Source of the DNA: a virus
Direction: 5' to 3' (one strand)
Length of the DNA stretch: 10,318 nucleotides
UHGV virus genome: UHGV-1824378
Shown: piece after piece, positions 3,881-10,318 of the stretch
Position numbering within the stretch: the first letter of the stretch is position 1
Layout of the letters: each line of letters begins with the position of its first letter
The notes under the pieces: model-generated
Seen by the model: only the letters and a program-made list of their open reading frames with translations
Database searches by the model: none
What the model was told of the DNA's origin: nothing
Made by a program: the position numbers and the translations under genes

Positions 3881-5371
3881 TTATATAGCAATTGTTTTAG
3901 TTGCATATCTGAACTTGTCGGTTAGATAATATCGGATTCTCTCAAGTGCATGTTTTACCGCATAATTTTTATGCTTGACTTTTCCGTTACGACCGAATAT
4001 ACACAGATGATCGATAAGATCCCAGACCGTTGCAATATCCTTAGAACCATGTTTACGCAATGCACGACCGATACTCTGACGAACGATAGTTGATTCCTTC
4101 ACTGGATGACCGAAAATAACATGGTGCAAGTTCTTAATTGAAACACCAGTAGAGAATACACCATAAGACGCAACACAAATGATCCCTGTGTCACCCTCCG
4201 CCATTTTCTTAAATTCATCACGTTCTTCTGTCTTAACTCCACCGTCAATATAATAAACCTTGTCGTGTACCTTCTGTAACGCGTCATACATAAGTTTTCC
4301 ATGCTTAGTATTGCGGAACATAAGGAATACGTTTTCACCCTTCTTAGCGAGTTTTAGCGCCAAATTACAAGCAAACTTATTACGTCGTGGGTTAGACGTA
4401 ATATACTTGATCTCTTCCGCATATTCTCGCCCCTTAACCGCGCTACATTCCTCATCGGTATAACGAAGGAAAAGACAGTTAATTTTCAGTTTTGTCACCT
4501 GCCCTTCTTCCATCAGGCGGTCAATACTCACGATCTTAGAAATATCACCGAAAAGCCCGACATACTGCATTAAATGGCACTTTGATTCTTTCGGGGAACC
4601 AGTCATACCGATCTTAAACTGGCAATGATTCATTCCGTTAATGATATTGGTAATATTTTTGGCACTAGCCTTATGCGATTCATCAACTATCAACATTCCA
4701 TATTGTTTGAACCATTCAGGAGGCATCTTGCACGCTGATTGCCAGGTACTAACCGTGATTAACCTGTCTCCCGGATGTTTCCCGCTACCACTCATCATTG
4801 TATGAATTGCTTCATAAGGGAATAACCGATAATCGATGAAATCATCCCTCATTTGAACCACTAGCGATGTAGTCGGGACAATGATTAACACCTTTCCGGT
4901 GTAATGCTCTAAGTACCAACGAGACAGCATACAAGCAATCAATGACTTTCCGGCACTGGTAGGAAGAACCAGCATTCTACGGCGATTGTGGATACCCTGA
5001 AAGACTGCTTCACGCTGATACCAGTAAGGATTGATTTTATTGGAACCGGAATACACTTCTAAAGAGTCAATCCACGAATCAATCTGTTCTTTGGTTACAT
5101 CTTCCTTCTCAAGTAATCGCGGGTCAATCCAGACTGAATAGCCCATATTTTTAACGAAGACACCCAATGTTTTTAATAGTCCAATTGGTAGGGTATTTTC
5201 ATGCGTAAACAGTCTTATTCGTCCATCCCAGCCGGAATACTTGTAGCGGGGGCTAAACCTAGCCCCTTCAACCTCAAACGAGAAATAATCTCTTAATTCC
5301 ATTCCGATAGAAGGAGAGCAATCAACCTTAACGAAACTGTAATCTTGAAAATGAATTTTAATATCTTGCAT
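3881..5371 (-). CDS. uvsW: UvsW-type SF2 DNA helicase (T4 UvsW-like)
   Basis: Walker A LPTSAGKS, motif II DESH, motif III TGS, motif VI QSIGRALRKHG. N- and C-terminal regions resemble T4 UvsW as I recall it (MQDIKIHFQDYSFVKVDC..., ...VWDLID...). I place the start at ATG 5371 (SD ggag upstream, overlaps upstream stop as TAATG); the track ORF starts at GTG 5380. Confidence 0.88.
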   Translation of the reverse strand: MQDIKIHFQDYSFVKVDCSPSIGMELRDYFSFEVEGARFSPRYKYSGWDGRIRLFTHENTLPIGLLKTLGVFVKNMGYSVWIDPRLLEKEDVTKEQIDSWIDSLEVYSGSNKINPYWYQREAVFQGIHNRRRMLVLPTSAGKSLIACMLSRWYLEHYTGKVLIIVPTTSLVVQMRDDFIDYRLFPYEAIHTMMSGSGKHPGDRLITVSTWQSACKMPPEWFKQYGMLIVDESHKASAKNITNIINGMNHCQFKIGMTGSPKESKCHLMQYVGLFGDISKIVSIDRLMEEGQVTKLKINCLFLRYTDEECSAVKGREYAEEIKYITSNPRRNKFACNLALKLAKKGENVFLMFRNTKHGKLMYDALQKVHDKVYYIDGGVKTEERDEFKKMAEGDTGIICVASYGVFSTGVSIKNLHHVIFGHPVKESTIVRQSIGRALRKHGSKDIATVWDLIDHLCIFGRNGKVKHKNYAVKHALERIRYYLTDKFRYATKTIAI

Positions 5372-5940
5372 TAGTTCCACTCCACACTTGCAATATTCTT
5401 TATATTGTTTAGTGATTTATTGCAGTAGTGGAATGTTTCAGTTTTGCCGTATTCAATCCCGCCTATACCCACATCCAGTAATCTCTTTATTGCTCTTTCA
5501 GTGGCTAAAGCATGTTTCATTGATGGCATTTCACCAGCAAAGACAATATCAAAGTTATGACCGGGATTGCGTACACCCAGATTAACACGTCGCTTGATGA
5601 TTGACTTTGTAACACCAAATTTACCAATATCCCCTGATTTCATTACATAGAGATAAGGCACACCCGCTTTATATTGAAAGTAATCACTATTGAAGCAAAC
5701 ACATCGTTTACCTTCATTAAGCAGGTTAGTAGCTGATTTGTCGGCTCTATTACCGCATCGGGTACATGTTAGAGCAATTCTTGAATGAAGCCCTTTAAAC
5801 TCACCCAGAAAGCCATGAAAGACTAACGGTAAGTCCTTCTCTTTGATGTGAGTCAGAATGCGTTGTTCTAATGCCGATGGAGTTACAGCACGGGAGGATT
5901 TAGGAGTAAAAACAATATCTTTAGCCATTACTGGAATCAT
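5371..5940 (-). CDS. Zinc-ribbon + GIY-YIG-superfamily (T5orf172-type) nuclease-like protein, homing-endonuclease-like, 189 aa
   Basis: ATG at 5940 with SD gtgagg. CxxC...CxC cluster (CTRCGNRADKSATNLLNEGKRCVCF) followed by YLYVM...GKFGVTKS...RR...ERAIKR...GKTETF, which matches the T5orf172 / GIY-YIG-like signature as I recall it. Stop overlaps helicase start, implying translational coupling. Confidence 0.6.
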   Translation of the reverse strand: MIPVMAKDIVFTPKSSRAVTPSALEQRILTHIKEKDLPLVFHGFLGEFKGLHSRIALTCTRCGNRADKSATNLLNEGKRCVCFNSDYFQYKAGVPYLYVMKSGDIGKFGVTKSIIKRRVNLGVRNPGHNFDIVFAGEMPSMKHALATERAIKRLLDVGIGGIEYGKTETFHYCNKSLNNIKNIASVEWN

Positions 5941-6002
5941 ATAGACCTCACTTTTTTAACTTATAGGCATAACCTCAATATGGTTGGTTTGGGATTTAGG
6001 GT

Positions 6003-6035
6003 CGCGTATTATACACATTCAGATAGAGAATGCAA
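6003..6035 (-). promoter_or_regulatory. Candidate sigma70-type promoter for the nuclease-helicase operon
   Basis: Minus strand reads TTGCAT (6035-6030), 16-nt spacer, TATAAT (6013-6008), then ACGCG (6007-6003), about 65 nt upstream of ATG 5940. The TATAATACGCG 11-mer recurs at 9051-9061. Confidence 0.4.
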
Positions 6036-6055
6036 TAGTAAGACAATTTTCTCTA

Positions 6056-6062
6056 ATAAATA
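6056..6062 (+). promoter_or_regulatory. ATAAATA heptamer, candidate T4-type late promoter core
   Basis: aATAAATA at 6055-6062, 32 nt upstream of ATG 6095. Confidence 0.3.
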
Positions 6063-6094
6063 GTAGTGAGCTTATTATTTTAGAGGAAACTACT

Positions 6095-7270
6095 ATGAAA
6101 CTTGCTTACGCTGCCGAAATTCCTTTTGTTAAGAAAACTCGCGGTTTATCGCCGGAAGAGTACCAACAACGAATCATCGCTAAACTGGAACCTGCTTTCG
6201 TATTTGGTGGATTTATCCTACCGTGGAAGGGTAATCACACTTACTTTCGAATCTACAATTTAGATACACAAGAATATAAGGACTACAAATTACGCAAACT
6301 GGAAGATACTAACGGGGGTGAGTTATTCCAGACTGAAAAGGCTGTATGGTTGAAAATGGAATCTCGTTGTAATGAGAAGGGAAAGAAATTCCTCGGATGG
6401 CAAGGAGAATGGAAAGGGCGAAATAGAACGAAAGCCCGTGTTTTGTGCCCTGAACACAATCAAATCATGACGCCATCTCTATTACATGCTCTCAAGGATG
6501 ATTTTGATTTTGATTGTAAAATCTGTATGGCTGAAAAATCCCAACGGGTAAGAAGTGGCAAGACTTTTGATGAAGTTATTAAGGACAAAGAGACAATCAT
6601 CAATGCACGTTGCGAGAGTACGCCTTACACCTTCAAAGGATTCATCATAAACACCCCACACCTAAAGGATGTTAAATTTAAAACCTATTGCAAGTCACAT
6701 AACCACGAATGGGAATCTCATTTAAGATGTGCTGATTCTTTCACTTGTCCGCTTTGTATTAAAGACCAACTGGTGCAACTGTCTAACCGGACTTATCAGG
6801 GTAAGGCTAGTTTCTACATTCAATTATTAGATGACAAATTTATTAAATTTGGAATCACTACCCGAAAACCAGAAGAACGAATGAGAGAACAAACCAGAAA
6901 GAGCAACTTCACTCACCGCTTAATCTTTACTCATGAGTTTGAGGATGGTTGGAAAGCTGCCGATTTAGAGCATGAAGTAAAACAACGCTTCAAGACTCAT
7001 GCAGCACCCTACAAAGATTTCAAGGATGGATGGTCGGAAACTCTGACTATTGATGAGTTACCACACTTACAGCAACTGGTTTATGACTACCTAACCAATC
7101 AACCGGACGAGGCTAATATGTGGGTATCTCCGAAAGATGTATTTGATGACGATACATTCAAGCTACATACTCACTTCTACGGCATCAATAAACCGGAATT
7201 TTTCTGTATTGATGACGACAGTCCTGATTTAATGGATGAATACTTTAATACGCTCTTAGACGCTGCCTAA
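6095..7270 (+). CDS. Tandem zinc-finger + GIY-YIG-superfamily (T5orf172-type) nuclease-like protein, 391 aa
   Basis: ATG at 6095 with SD gaggaaa; the track ORF begins at an upstream TTG (5984) that I do not favour. Two Cys/His modules (CPEHN...CKIC; CKSHNHEWESHLRCADSFTCPLC) then FYIQLL...KFGITTRKPEERMRE...EHEVKQRFK...GWSETL, paralogous to the C-terminal half of the 5371-5940 protein. Confidence 0.65.
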   Translation: MKLAYAAEIPFVKKTRGLSPEEYQQRIIAKLEPAFVFGGFILPWKGNHTYFRIYNLDTQEYKDYKLRKLEDTNGGELFQTEKAVWLKMESRCNEKGKKFLGWQGEWKGRNRTKARVLCPEHNQIMTPSLLHALKDDFDFDCKICMAEKSQRVRSGKTFDEVIKDKETIINARCESTPYTFKGFIINTPHLKDVKFKTYCKSHNHEWESHLRCADSFTCPLCIKDQLVQLSNRTYQGKASFYIQLLDDKFIKFGITTRKPEERMREQTRKSNFTHRLIFTHEFEDGWKAADLEHEVKQRFKTHAAPYKDFKDGWSETLTIDELPHLQQLVYDYLTNQPDEANMWVSPKDVFDDDTFKLHTHFYGINKPEFFCIDDDSPDLMDEYFNTLLDAA

Positions 7271-7285
7271 CGCAATTAAATTCAA

Positions 7286-7307
7286 AAGGGGTACAGATGT
7301 ACCCCTT
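7286..7307. terminator. Bidirectional hairpin terminator between convergent genes
   Basis: Perfect palindrome aaggggtac-agat-gtacccctt (7286-7307). Minus strand has the U-tract (plus-strand ttcaaaa 7281-7287); plus strand has a weaker T-run after it. Confidence 0.6.
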
Positions 7308-7343: not shown

Positions 7344-9023
7344 TTAAATTCCAAATTCCTGTAATGGACCTGGTATTTCCTCTTCTGGTTTCCAGTTCTT
7401 ATCTGTCAGCATGTCTAAACATGGATGCAAAACAAGCCCGTTACTTTCCAGAATCTGTCTATCATTGATAGTTTTCAAATCAATGAATATCCGGCCTTTC
7501 CTCGTTCCTCTTGAATTTTCTATTACAACTCTCTGGGTCTTTCCATCGATGTATTCCAGTACAAACAAGTTTTTGTTTCTGTCAATCCTGCTACACCCGA
7601 TCCGCTTTAGAGCTTGCTTAATCTTAAACCGGACCTTTAGTCGTTCCTCGTTGTAAACATCTTCTAAATCAAATTCTGCGAGCTTCTCCCAGCCTTGAGA
7701 GTCAACAGAATACATTTCCTCTTCTGCCATCTTGATCTGATTGTAGAGTGTTTCACGCTCGCTATTGAGGGTAGTAATCTGATCGGCTAGCTCCTTCGTT
7801 GCTCCTGTCATAGCAGAAAGGGCAATCAGGTTATCAATCTTGCGTGATATTTCATCAACCTGTACTTTCAACGCCGGAACCGGATTAGCCTTATCCTCAG
7901 CAATCCAGATTTTATCAGCCAGCAATTGCAATACAGCTTTCTCTAATTGATCCCCTCGAAAACTCCAGTTTGGATGCTCGCAATCAAGTCTACGTGAACG
8001 GGTCGCATCACATGTATAACGATACTGGTCAGAACGTTTGTTTGTTCCCTTCACTTTAACCATAGCGCAACCGCAATGATCACATTTCAATAGGCCAATG
8101 CCACTAAGCAGGGGGATCGGTTTAACTTCTTCCTTGTCTCCAAAGTTCCATGCTCTAGCACCAATATTTTTCTTAAGGTGATAGAACGTAGCATCATCAA
8201 TAACACGAGGGTAATAATCCTTTAACTCATAGTTAACACCATCAACAGAGACCTCCTTGATACCAATCAAAGCGCGGGTATGGAACAACCTTTCAACCAT
8301 TGCCCGTGACCATTTTGAATGCTTCTTGTTGCTTACTGCTGGTGGTGGTGCATATGTCTCGTTAAGGTGATCCAGTATTTCGGCGGTTGAACGTCCATTC
8401 TTCCGTAATTCCACAATCTCCTGAACAACAGGGAAGTATGTAGGATGAGGCAACACATAACCGGAAGTGGTATCAGTCCACCACATATTCTTTCCAACTT
8501 CCTCGATAGCCACTGCCGGATTTTGTGGATTTTCTTGATGAGCTTTAATCTTAATCAATGCGCTTGAGTTAGTACGATTGCGCTTAGTCTGACTTTCCTC
8601 ATTACCACGGATGAATAAAAGGATGGAGAACATCAGGTCCATCGGATTAGCGGTAACAGTATCCAGCGAGTAGATCTTGTTATCCATGCCAGTAACAATG
8701 GTTATTCCCCTACGGATGATTGAAAGGAATAACTCCTGCGCACTGACAATATCGGCACGGGATAAGCGGTCCAAGTTTTCAATGAATAGCCAGCTACCAA
8801 CAGGAACGGATCTACCAATTGCATCAAGGAAACGAGATAGCGCCCCTGTTTTAGAGTTAGCACCCTTAAACGCAGATACACCCAGATCCTGATAATCATT
8901 TACCAGTTCAAGGTCATACTTTGCCGCAACCTCTCTCGCCATCCTGATTTGTCGTTCATAACTCGAACCATCATTCTGACGCATAGACGAGAAGCGAATA
9001 TACGAATACAGTTTAGTTTTCAT
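7344..9023 (-). CDS. Large serine recombinase (serine integrase / resolvase superfamily), 559 aa
   Basis: N-terminal catalytic domain motifs YSYIRFSSMRQ (catalytic Ser), DLGVSAFKG and ENLDRLSR; Cys-rich zinc-ribbon (CDHCGCAMVKVKG...YTCDATRSRRLDCEHP); C-terminal coiled-coil. The size and domain order match large serine recombinases. Confidence 0.88.
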   Translation of the reverse strand: MKTKLYSYIRFSSMRQNDGSSYERQIRMAREVAAKYDLELVNDYQDLGVSAFKGANSKTGALSRFLDAIGRSVPVGSWLFIENLDRLSRADIVSAQELFLSIIRRGITIVTGMDNKIYSLDTVTANPMDLMFSILLFIRGNEESQTKRNRTNSSALIKIKAHQENPQNPAVAIEEVGKNMWWTDTTSGYVLPHPTYFPVVQEIVELRKNGRSTAEILDHLNETYAPPPAVSNKKHSKWSRAMVERLFHTRALIGIKEVSVDGVNYELKDYYPRVIDDATFYHLKKNIGARAWNFGDKEEVKPIPLLSGIGLLKCDHCGCAMVKVKGTNKRSDQYRYTCDATRSRRLDCEHPNWSFRGDQLEKAVLQLLADKIWIAEDKANPVPALKVQVDEISRKIDNLIALSAMTGATKELADQITTLNSERETLYNQIKMAEEEMYSVDSQGWEKLAEFDLEDVYNEERLKVRFKIKQALKRIGCSRIDRNKNLFVLEYIDGKTQRVVIENSRGTRKGRIFIDLKTINDRQILESNGLVLHPCLDMLTDKNWKPEEEIPGPLQEFGI

Positions 9024-9029
9024 ACCATT

Positions 9030-9072
9030 TCCAAAACAAAAAGCCCCTACCGCGTATTATAACGATAGGGGC
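9030..9072 (-). terminator. Rho-independent terminator (minus strand) downstream of the 9089-9334 gene
   Basis: Stem gccccta (9043-9049) / taggggc (9066-9072) with 10-nt loop; on the minus strand it is followed by TTTTTGTTTT (plus 9030-9042). Confidence 0.55.
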
Positions 9073-9084
9073 ATTGGTTAGTAA
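9051..9084 (-). promoter_or_regulatory. Candidate sigma70-type promoter for the serine recombinase, embedded in the terminator hairpin
   Basis: Minus strand reads TTACTA (9084-9079), 17-nt spacer, TATAAT (9061-9056), then ACGCG (9055-9051), about 30 nt upstream of ATG 9023. Same TATAATACGCG 11-mer as at 6003-6013. Confidence 0.4.
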
Positions 9085-9088
9085 GTCA

Positions 9089-9334
9089 TTAATATTTCTT
9101 TCCAGTTAGTTTTGCATCACGTTTATTAATATCCTCGATATGACTCCATACACACGCAGTAATAAAGTCGTCATCGTCACCAACTCCGGCAACCTGTGCT
9201 AATTCAGTACACAGTTGATTTAAAGAAGGTGCAACGGCAGCACGCTTGACACTATCACCCTGTACATATTGTTCGGCATTTGCAGCACCAACCAAACCCA
9301 GAGCAAGAACGATACCCGCGATAATCTTTTTCAT
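9089..9334 (-). CDS. Small secreted (signal-peptide) protein, 81 aa
   Basis: ATG at 9334 with SD gagga. N-terminus MKKIIAGIVLALGLVGAANA-EQY has a basic n-region, hydrophobic core and AxA cleavage site; mature part about 61 aa with two Cys and an acidic DDDD patch. Confidence 0.6.
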   Translation of the reverse strand: MKKIIAGIVLALGLVGAANAEQYVQGDSVKRAAVAPSLNQLCTELAQVAGVGDDDDFITACVWSHIEDINKRDAKLTGKKY

Positions 9335-9368
9335 AGTAGAATTTCCTCTTGTTATTTGAATTACGATA

Positions 9369-9376
9369 TATTTATA
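9369..9376 (-). promoter_or_regulatory. TATAAATA octamer (minus strand), candidate T4-type late promoter
   Basis: Plus-strand tatttata at 9369-9376 is TATAAATA on the minus strand, 34 nt upstream of ATG 9334 and just downstream of the stop at 9380. Confidence 0.3.
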
Positions 9377-9379
9377 TCG

Positions 9380-9505
9380 TTAAAAATTGATGCTAATTAC
9401 CAGACCAAACACAACCGCACCAATCAAATCAATCCAGTTAATACACAATCCGCTATATTCTTTCTTGAATGTCTTAGATGAAATGCCATCATGAAATTGT
9501 TTCAT
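9380..9505 (-). CDS. Putative small tail-anchored membrane protein (41 aa), not in ORF track
   Basis: Hand translation of the minus strand gives MKQFHDGISSKTFKKEYSGLCINWIDLIGAVVFGLVISINF with stop TAA at 9380-9382. ATG lies 3 nt after the upstream small-ORF stop. Short, so speculative. Confidence 0.3.
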   Translation of the reverse strand: MKQFHDGISSKTFKKEYSGLCINWIDLIGAVVFGLVISINF

Positions 9506-9508
9506 TGC

Positions 9509-9589
9509 TCACCCCATACTAACGACAAGATAAGAAAGACTAATCATAGTTGTGAGACTACCTCCCACGAATGAGATAAAAGCTAACAT
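9509..9589 (-). CDS. Putative hydrophobic micro-protein (26 aa), not in ORF track
   Basis: ATG at 9589 preceded by SD ggaga at about 7 nt; translation MLAFISFVGGSLTTMISLSYLVVSMG. Sits directly after a terminator, so expression would need read-through. Speculative. Confidence 0.22.
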   Translation of the reverse strand: MLAFISFVGGSLTTMISLSYLVVSMG

Positions 9590-9603: not shown

Positions 9604-9632
9604 TTTAAAAAGCGGTGGGAATTACACCCACC
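9604..9632 (-). terminator. Rho-independent terminator (minus strand) after the 9647-10033 gene
   Basis: Minus strand reads GGTGGG-TGTAATT-CCCACC followed by GCTTTTT (plus-strand stem 9614-9619 / 9627-9632, T-tract complement 9607-9611), 15 nt past the stop at 9647. Confidence 0.65.
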
Positions 9633-9646
9633 AAATTAGAAATTAA

Positions 9647-10045: not shown

Positions 10046-10318
10046 TTACTTCTTGCTGATAAACTCTTTAGCGATAAAGTTGATTACTTCTTTCAGCTTC
10101 TTGTCTGTATCGATGCACGCCGGTAATTCTTCTTTAATCTCCTGCGGCAGATACACATTGCCTTTAAAGTGGAGGAAACCATCATTACCAATCATGTAGG
10201 AGAACATCCATTCACAATCGTTATCCGCTTCCCAGAACGCCACGGCCTCATCGCCAATCAAGGTAATGTCCATGTTGCGACGTGCTGCGTAGTTGATGAT
10301 TGCTTTACCGATGTTCAT
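10046..10318 (-). CDS. Hypothetical protein (90 aa from the ATG at the window edge; may extend beyond)
   Basis: Open frame to the last window base, where nt 10316-10318 cat = ATG. Cannot tell whether this is the true start because upstream sequence is outside the window. Confidence 0.5.
   Translation of the reverse strand: MNIGKAIINYAARRNMDITLIGDEAVAFWEADNDCEWMFSYMIGNDGFLHFKGNVYLPQEIKEELPACIDTDKKLKEVINFIAKEFISKK

Follow-up and report, generated by a model that had tools for sequence, protein, structure and literature searches.

The window, by which we mean the whole 10,318-nt stretch of DNA that was analyzed (UHGV-1824378), comes from a 36.8-kb E. coli prophage, of which it forms the integrase end; the insertion site is ycdX. 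In strain 2017.18.04CC ycdX is split by the prophage and the host junction lies about 40 bp past window position 10318. Chromosomal segments 95%–98% identical to the window were present in 60 of 5426 complete E. coli genomes. Plasmids gave no match to the window, matches to phage DNA were confined to the helicase gene, and a search of the phage collection for a close isolated relative found none, the best recombinase match being 31.6% identical. Relatives were taken from IMG/VR contigs, from complete E. coli genomes and from contigs with recombinase homologues (Salmonella, E. fergusonii, Edwardsiella, metagenomes). The features of the window, from the host junction inward, were as follows.

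Host junction to hairpin 9633-9613, minus strand: ORFs of 90 aa and 128 aa, the first from the junction
9633-9613, minus strand: terminator-like hairpin, 5' of small hydrophobic peptide ORFs
9380-9588, minus strand: unannotated hydrophobic peptide ORFs of 26 aa and 41 aa, after hairpin 9633-9613
9380-9505, minus strand: the 41-aa hydrophobic peptide gene (MKQFHDGISSKTFKK...), which in most relatives lies directly 5' of the hairpin at 9072-9043
9089-9334, minus strand: 81-aa ORF with signal peptide, inserted between the 41-aa gene and hairpin 9072-9043
9079-9084, minus strand: TTACTA, candidate -35 of site 2 (3 of 6 bases of TTGACA, 17-nt spacer)
9072-9062, minus strand: hairpin 5' arm GCCCCTATCGT of an 11-bp stem
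9061-9054, minus strand: hairpin loop TATAATAC, 8 nt
9056-9061, minus strand: TATAAT in the hairpin loop, proposed -10 of the recombinase promoter (6 of 6 consensus bases)
9053-9043, minus strand: hairpin 3' arm GCGGTAGGGGC of the 11-bp stem
9047-9050, minus strand: predicted transcription start zone, 6-9 nt past the hexamer and in the 3' arm
9033-9042, minus strand: T-run TTTTTGTTTT directly 3' of the stem, the putative terminator U-tract
7344-9023, minus strand: large serine recombinase of 559 aa, the prophage integrase (Pfam Resolvase, Recombinase, Zn_ribbon_recom)
7286-7307, minus strand: terminator-like hairpin 3' of the recombinase gene, from the scan
6095-7270, plus strand: CapR/T5orf172 gene, beyond hairpin 7307-7286
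6035-6030, minus strand: TTGCAT, -35 of site 1, 16-nt spacer
6013-6008, minus strand: TATAAT, -10 of site 1
6007-6003, minus strand: ACGCG, discriminator of site 1, which continues as ACCC to 5999
5940-5371, minus strand: 189-aa CapR-domain protein, first gene of the site 1 operon (3881-5940)
5380-3881, minus strand: UvsW-type helicase, second gene of the site 1 operon

The recombinase gene lies 1.3 kb from the prophage/ycdX junction and is bracketed by the terminator-like hairpins 9072-9043 and 7307-7286. The CapR/T5orf172 gene and the nuclease-helicase operon are separated by a divergent intergenic region, and the helicase DNA was 80%–90% identical to that of the helicase of Krischvirus (RB49-like) phages.

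An 11-base sequence, TATAATACGCG, was found exactly twice in the window, both times on the minus strand, at 6013-6003 (site 1) and 9061-9051 (site 2). The sequence-only reading of this DNA had described these two copies as promoter-like elements upstream of minus-strand genes, namely the nuclease-helicase operon and the recombinase, with a plausible -35 and a CTTACTA heptamer upstream of each and with the second -10 in the loop of a terminator hairpin. The coordinates bore out this description, as TTGCAT and TTACTA (9084-9079) lie 16 nt and 17 nt 5' of their respective TATAAT, CTTACTA occurs at 6042-6036 and 9085-9079, both copies precede the genes named, and the second TATAAT falls within the 8-nt loop of the 11-bp hairpin.

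Between the 81-aa ORF and the recombinase, the hairpin at 9072-9043 starts 16 nt after the former's stop codon and ends 19 nt short of the latter's ATG. Seven of its eleven pairs are G-C, it ranked top among the terminator-like sites in the scan, and the RNA of this region was predicted to fold at -23.2 kcal/mol (z = -3.3). A GC-rich stem-loop followed by a U-run and placed downstream of a stop codon is what would be expected of an intrinsic terminator, and a run of 5-6 T was kept in every hairpin version found. Since the G-U wobble positions and the T-run exist on the minus strand only, the hairpin is read as RNA of the minus strand. No Rfam family matched either site at E-values up to 1. The 30-mer occurred once per contig and solely adjoining this recombinase, and on this ground a dispersed repeat or mobile element was rejected. 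The segment 9072-9033 has the appearance of an intrinsic terminator whose loop contains a sigma-70 -10 hexamer, and this assignment is well supported by the comparison of relatives.

Hairpin versions were collected from relatives with recombinases 61%–100% identical to that of the window and are given here as 5' arm, loop and 3' arm.

Window version: GCCCCTATCGT / TATAATAC / GCGGTAGGGGC, in E. coli, E. fergusonii and Salmonella (L056/57)
G to A variant: GCCCCTATCGT / TATAATAC / ACGGTAGGGGC, in E. coli (e.g. L003), where a T-G pair becomes T-A
L058 version: GCCCCTATC / GATATAAT / GGTAGGGGC, in Salmonella
L063 version: GCCCCTATC / GTATAAT / GGTAGGGGC, in Salmonella
L065 version: GACCCTCGTC / GTTATAAT / GGCGAGGGTT
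L061 version: GCCCTGC / TTATAATA / GCGGGGC, in Edwardsiella tarda
L071/72 variant: last loop base C to A relative to the window version, in Salmonella
TATAATAAGCGG variant: a further version among the relatives

When six versions were aligned, with the register set by hand from the stem base (the plain MAFFT alignment was not structure-consistent), all 57 of 57 pair cells were standard pairs and 5 of the 11 pairs showed compensatory change. None of 500 shuffles reached the observed values, and slid registers paired at 42%–58%. This covariation spans E. coli, E. fergusonii, Salmonella, Edwardsiella and the L065 locus, and across the same span TATAAT was invariant in all loop versions. The only other invariant blocks in the alignment were two C-G pairs and the T-run, while 9 of the 11 stem pairs and the remaining loop bases varied. 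The length of the TATAAT-bearing loops was constant at 7-8 nt, which is unusually long for a terminator loop and fits the need to house the hexamer. The arrangement was absent from the distant recombinase homologues L066-L068 (38%–40% identity) and is thus limited to the clade at 61% identity or more; because the hairpin versions share one ancestor, the invariance of the hexamer is partly inherited. With stem covariation and hexamer invariance taken together, the earlier proposal of an overlapping terminator and promoter at the recombinase gained support from the sequences of relatives. What goes beyond chance is the TATAAT in the hairpin loop, as its conservation in relatives shows.

In two lineages the hairpin had been rebuilt and the -10 hexamer moved to its 5' edge. 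The L073/74 loci carry a hairpin CCCCTTGC-ATCA-GTAAGGGG with a 4-nt loop, with TATAAT 2 nt before the stem and TTGAGT 17 nt upstream of TATAAT, and in L075 a TAATAT abuts a hairpin with a UUCG loop. The hexamer appears, then, to follow the terminator and not the loop. One relative with a recombinase 94% identical (L026) had a different terminator, behind an inserted T5orf172-type gene, with no good -10 inside or beside it, and the recombinase there must be expressed another way. In E. coli RMDEC332 (L055, locus 2490-2536) an IS911 element was found in the hairpin loop, within TATAAT, with the 5' arm removed, which amounts to a natural knock-out of both the putative terminator and the proposed promoter.

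The remaining promoter determinants at site 2 were less constant. The candidate -35 begins 7 nt upstream of the 5' arm and is not conserved; in other contexts TTTAAT, TTCACC, TTTATT, TTCTAA, TTTTCT or TTGAGT stand at this distance, so that every context offers 3-4 of 6 consensus bases, and no version has TG at -15/-14. In the window the -35 of both sites matches TTGACA at 3 of 6 positions and the consensus scan listed neither site. By standard sigma-70 geometry a start 6-8 nt past the hexamer lands within the hairpin in every geometry seen. Window RNAs begun at the predicted start folded at about -0.9 kcal/mol and were without the terminator hairpin, compared with -20.3 kcal/mol for the upstream RNA. 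Across versions, RNAs coming from upstream folded at -16 to -20 kcal/mol right before the U-run, and those begun 6-8 nt past the hexamer at -5 kcal/mol or weaker. With the -10 in the loop and the predicted start in the 3' arm, the terminator and the promoter would overlap, and a start inside the hairpin would let upstream transcripts terminate and integrase transcripts escape.

We consider it probable that site 2 (9084-9033) is a dual element, at once a terminator and the promoter of the integrase, and that the two 11-mer copies belong to unrelated sigma-70-type promoters. RNA from the upstream small genes would fold into the GC-rich hairpin with its U-run, and these transcripts would be terminated. 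As DNA, the TATAAT of the loop region would serve as the -10 element of the integrase promoter, and RNA polymerase would start about 7 nt downstream of the hexamer, inside the 3' arm. The integrase mRNA would thus lack the 5' arm and form no terminator, and its synthesis would continue past the U-run to the ribosome-binding site and on into the recombinase gene. The weak -35 would be supplied by whatever sequence lies 5', and from this we infer a promoter that is probably weak and largely constitutive, which may be tolerable as a serine integrase requires a separate directionality factor for excision.

Two other explanations of the hairpin were weighed against this dual element. It could be a terminator or attenuator only, with the recombinase expressed by partial or regulated read-through from upstream promoters and UAUAAU either simply inherited or retained for a role in the RNA, such as binding of an antisense RNA or of a protein that controls the upstream hydrophobic peptide gene. 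The weak, non-conserved -35 and the terminator without a hexamer in L026 are consistent with this, and the 41-aa hydrophobic peptide encoded upstream resembles small toxin-type genes, which are often RNA-regulated. The terminator at 9633-9613 also directly precedes small ORFs without an obvious promoter, and since these ORFs come at once after it, read-through may be the normal mode of expression here. However, no loop version departs from the exact sigma-70 consensus, even though 9 of 11 stem pairs and the rest of the loop vary. The site matches no Rfam family, and in the lineages rebuilt with tetraloops TATAAT or TAATAT is found just outside the stem at promoter distance, which a function of the RNA loop does not predict. 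The pattern appears to be explained by a promoter and not by an RNA-loop function, and we regard the terminator-only explanation as unlikely.

Alternatively, the inverted repeat might act as double-stranded DNA, an operator-like palindrome centred on the -10 where binding of a dimeric regulator or of the recombinase shuts the promoter. Arms of 7-11 bp do bracket the hexamer, and compensatory change keeps a symmetry that preserves a DNA palindrome as well as an RNA stem. Several versions, however, hold G-T wobbles (two in that of the window) which pair in RNA but are mismatches in a DNA palindrome, and every version has its T-run on one side only. The arm sequences also differ wholly between lineages, so that there is no common recognition sequence, and the gap between the arms, 7-8 bp or 4 bp, depends on the lineage. 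An operator at this position is very unlikely on these grounds, and the dual terminator-promoter is the explanation we retain for site 2.

The sequence-only reading had gone further and taken TATAATACGCG with the upstream CTTACTA as one shared regulatory element, whose identical discriminator would co-regulate the nuclease-helicase operon and the recombinase. In its favour, both exact copies are on one strand, each lies 5' of a minus-strand gene and each has a GC-rich discriminator, and among the ten TATAAT hexamers of the window these two alone are intergenic, on the coding strand and upstream of a gene, as read from the coordinates. Against it, repeated 11-mers are common in the window, where 41 direct repeat pairs were counted compared with 20 ± 6 in Markov-1 simulations. 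With one mismatch allowed, two matches to the TATAATACGCG pattern were reached in the window by 5 of 200 shuffles and in the whole-prophage locus by 22 of 100. The motif search which that reading had proposed was run across the 36.8-kb prophage and returned only the two known copies, even with one mismatch, and a phage-wide promoter motif was rejected on this result; consensus promoters elsewhere in the prophage (L069 34360-34416) have other bases after the hexamer. CTTACTA is within chance (3 in the window against 1.1 expected, with 3 reached by 21 of 200 shuffles) and conserved at neither site. Relatives have CTCACTA, CTCTCTA or CTTGCTA at site 1, and at site 2 the heptamer is part of the 3' flank of the inserted 81-aa gene.

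The bases after the hexamer told the same story of independence. In relatives TATAAT is followed at site 2 by ACGCG, ACACG, AAGCG, GGTAG, GGCGA or AGCGG, and at site 1 by ACGCG, GCGCG, CCGCG or ACTCG, with TATACTATGCG also found there and TACAAT-ACGCG or TATACT-ATGCG as alternatives. At site 2 ACGCG is hairpin sequence, with two bases from the end of the loop and three from the start of the 3' arm, and other hairpin versions lack or change it (TATAATGGTAGG, TATAATGGCGAG, TATAATAGCGGG, TATAATAAGCGG, TATAATACACGG). Loci with both sites showed nine distinct 11-mer combinations of which one was identical, and L075 adds a tenth which also differs. Most relatives have site 2 without site 1, the latter being missing because other cargo replaces the nuclease-helicase module. 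An ancestral duplication was also rejected: the 50-bp regions of the two sites are by eye unrelated apart from CTTACTA and the 11-mer, and both of these common pieces vanish in relatives. Because the repeat is at chance level, the sites drift independently and site 2 so often stands without site 1, the comparison gives no support to an identical discriminator as a means of co-regulating helicase, nuclease and recombinase. By the sequences compared such co-regulation appears already largely refuted, and a shared element is extremely unlikely. In our reading TATAAT is common to both sites as both would be promoters, and the next five bases would be alike in this lineage by coincidence; an exact 11-base repeat between two promoters need not mean co-regulation.

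Site 1 by itself was the better defined of the two. In relatives its -35 is TTGCAT, TTGACA, TTGCAA or TTGCAC and its -10 TATAAT, TACAAT or TATACT, and the spacing of 16-17 nt is kept where the spacer has been rewritten (L018, L023, L056, L058, L063). Downstream of the -10, GCGACC is kept in all relatives but one, L075, which has CTCGACC. Because the -35 and -10 are conserved at fixed spacing across divergent spacers, as would be expected for sigma-70, site 1 (6035-5999) is a credible promoter of the nuclease-helicase operon, ordinary and independent, with a GC-rich discriminator of its own. A T4-type middle (MotA box) or late promoter at either site, considered for the RB49-like helicase, was rejected, as the prophage is temperate and, judged by eye, the spacing to TTGCAT does not suit a MotA box.

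Promoters of the rrnB P1 type have a GC-rich discriminator and are stringent, that is, sensitive to ppGpp/DksA. Site 1 resembles them in its 16-nt spacer, consensus -10, GC-rich discriminator and the C two bases past the hexamer, and a Salmonella version of site 1, TTGACA-16-TATAATGCGCGACC, is close to the rrnB P1 sequence, TATAATGCGCCACC, a resemblance of sequence only. Site 2 versions, unlike site 1, carry either C or G two bases past the hexamer, so this property is neither shared nor conserved between the sites.

Other features were noted around site 1. In four IMG/VR loci (L008, L019, L022, L029) a deletion has left the site 1 spacer (…GGATGTG) fused to the final 30 codons of the 189-aa gene, with loss of the -10 and of most of that gene and with the helicase kept. 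The leader of the nuclease-helicase operon (5941-6002, minus strand) holds a conserved block, GAGG-N-(A/T)TGCCTATAAG, which in the window reads as a 4-codon mini-ORF (ATG CCT ATA AGT TAA) that has a Shine-Dalgarno sequence to itself; the details vary in the Salmonella versions. On the plus strand at 6045-6095 a cassette of about 45 bp lies at the start of the CapR/T5orf172 gene, with an inverted repeat ATAGTAGT...ACTACTAT which spans the ribosome-binding site and ATG, and it is conserved in relatives even with different flanking genes. Three copies of the core, ATAAATARTAGTGA, are present in the prophage (L069 5098-5111, 33490-33503 and 34770-34783), every one of them immediately upstream of a gene, and the core resembles the T4 late-promoter box, TATAAATA. 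The cassette might act as a promoter specific to the phage, or as a hairpin in the control of translation.

Elsewhere in the same prophage, beyond the window, an unannotated region of 1.4 kb (L069 33451-34838) contains about nine iterons (TTCAGGGGCAAAAAT) and repeats of the ATCTAGTAAC-AGTT type. Two consensus promoters in tandem are also present there, TTGACA-17-TATACT and TTGACA-17-TATAAT, each with a TG, and the region resembles an origin combined with early control sequences.

The sequence upstream of the site 2 hairpin proved to be mosaic, with a junction at 9072/9073, the first hairpin base. In 28 E. coli genomes the match to the window extends through the 81-aa gene, and in 27 it begins no earlier than the first hairpin base. 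The IMG/VR loci showed at least three upstream contexts, all joining exactly at GCCCC. As the upstream neighbour changes with the junction always at the first hairpin base, the hairpin travels with the recombinase module. Relatives carry other genes or none in place of the 81-aa ORF; at the same spot (9073-9379, minus strand) other strains (L006, L010) have a longer gene with the same signal peptide, or nothing. The segment 9073-9379 thus appears to be a cargo hot spot ending exactly at the first hairpin base. Nearly all relatives have kept the 41-aa peptide gene immediately upstream of the integrase hairpin. The hairpin at 9613-9633 (minus strand) was also seen to hold a -10-like TGTAAT in a 7-nt loop, which in another strain is TGCAAT.

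On the other side of the recombinase, the region from the integrase to the lysis genes is likewise mosaic (window 3881-7270; L065 4858-6500; L026). Some relatives have the UvsW helicase and two CapR-domain proteins, one with a T5orf172/MUG113 nuclease-type domain, in L065 the defence genes KwaA/KwaB replace the nuclease-helicase module, in L061 other genes replace it, and in L026 another T5orf172-type gene is inserted ahead of the recombinase. This suggests a slot for defence or accessory cargo. The scan of genome contigs with the recombinase returned as its sole match a 512-bp contig labelled Actinacidiphila cocklensis (L002, JANCAF010000145.1) with a 99% identical recombinase fragment, which is probably assembly contamination.

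The placing of a -10 within a terminator also raised the idea that it might go beyond compaction and form a coupling device, in which the transcription of the attP-proximal genes upstream would determine how much integrase is made, with no dedicated regulator. We know of no natural element built for post-termination recycling. Coupling could take one of two routes: a polymerase that has released its RNA at the terminator might remain bound to the DNA, where the promoter within those 30 bp would recapture it, or upstream transcription might occlude the embedded promoter. Post-termination recycling onto nearby promoters has been cited for hairpin terminators in a 2026 preprint (10.64898/2026.02.12.705533), which also discusses dual terminator-promoter sequences. 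As an account of site 2 we hold coupling of this kind to be quite improbable.

Overlap of terminators and promoters is itself known. In operon concatenation (PMC6735719, 2019) the intrinsic terminator of an upstream unit physically overlaps the sigma-70 promoter of the next, and there as here the arrangement is conserved among relatives and may link or insulate the expression of neighbouring units. Unlike the published cases, the present element lies in a prophage, before a serine integrase gene. It has its -10 in the loop or at the 5' edge and its predicted start inside the hairpin. The gene upstream of it is freely exchanged, which runs counter to the colinearity constraint proposed for the ribosomal operons. 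We take site 2, as read here, to be a further case of the known terminator-promoter overlap in the setting of a prophage and a serine integrase. Phrase searches of the literature, with incomplete coverage, for a -10 in a terminator loop found no direct precedent and no description of the exact geometry, and nothing was found on this prophage.

Two other known systems share features with this region. Prophage morons, a concept of Hendrix and Juhala, are autonomous insertions among phage genes, each a cassette of promoter, gene and terminator. The 81-aa secreted-protein gene is likewise inserted between two conserved phage features and followed by a terminator, and the cargo differs among relatives. 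Unlike that of a moron, the terminator here belongs to the resident integrase module, is reused and would double as the integrase promoter, and is not brought by the cargo. The virion RNA polymerase of phage N4 is phage-encoded and uses promoters with 5-7-bp stems and 3-nt loops of specific sequence, and the likeness lies in a promoter determinant within a DNA hairpin; in contrast, the loop here is 7-8 nt, holds the host sigma-70 consensus and is followed, after the hairpin, by a T-run.

The element at site 2 would be a clean natural example of 30 bp that both stop and start transcription, and a stem that covaries around an invariant -10 is a usable search signature for dual elements elsewhere. 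For this undescribed enterobacterial prophage family it provides a concrete candidate promoter and start site for the integrase, a member of the large serine integrases that are of interest as genome-engineering tools.
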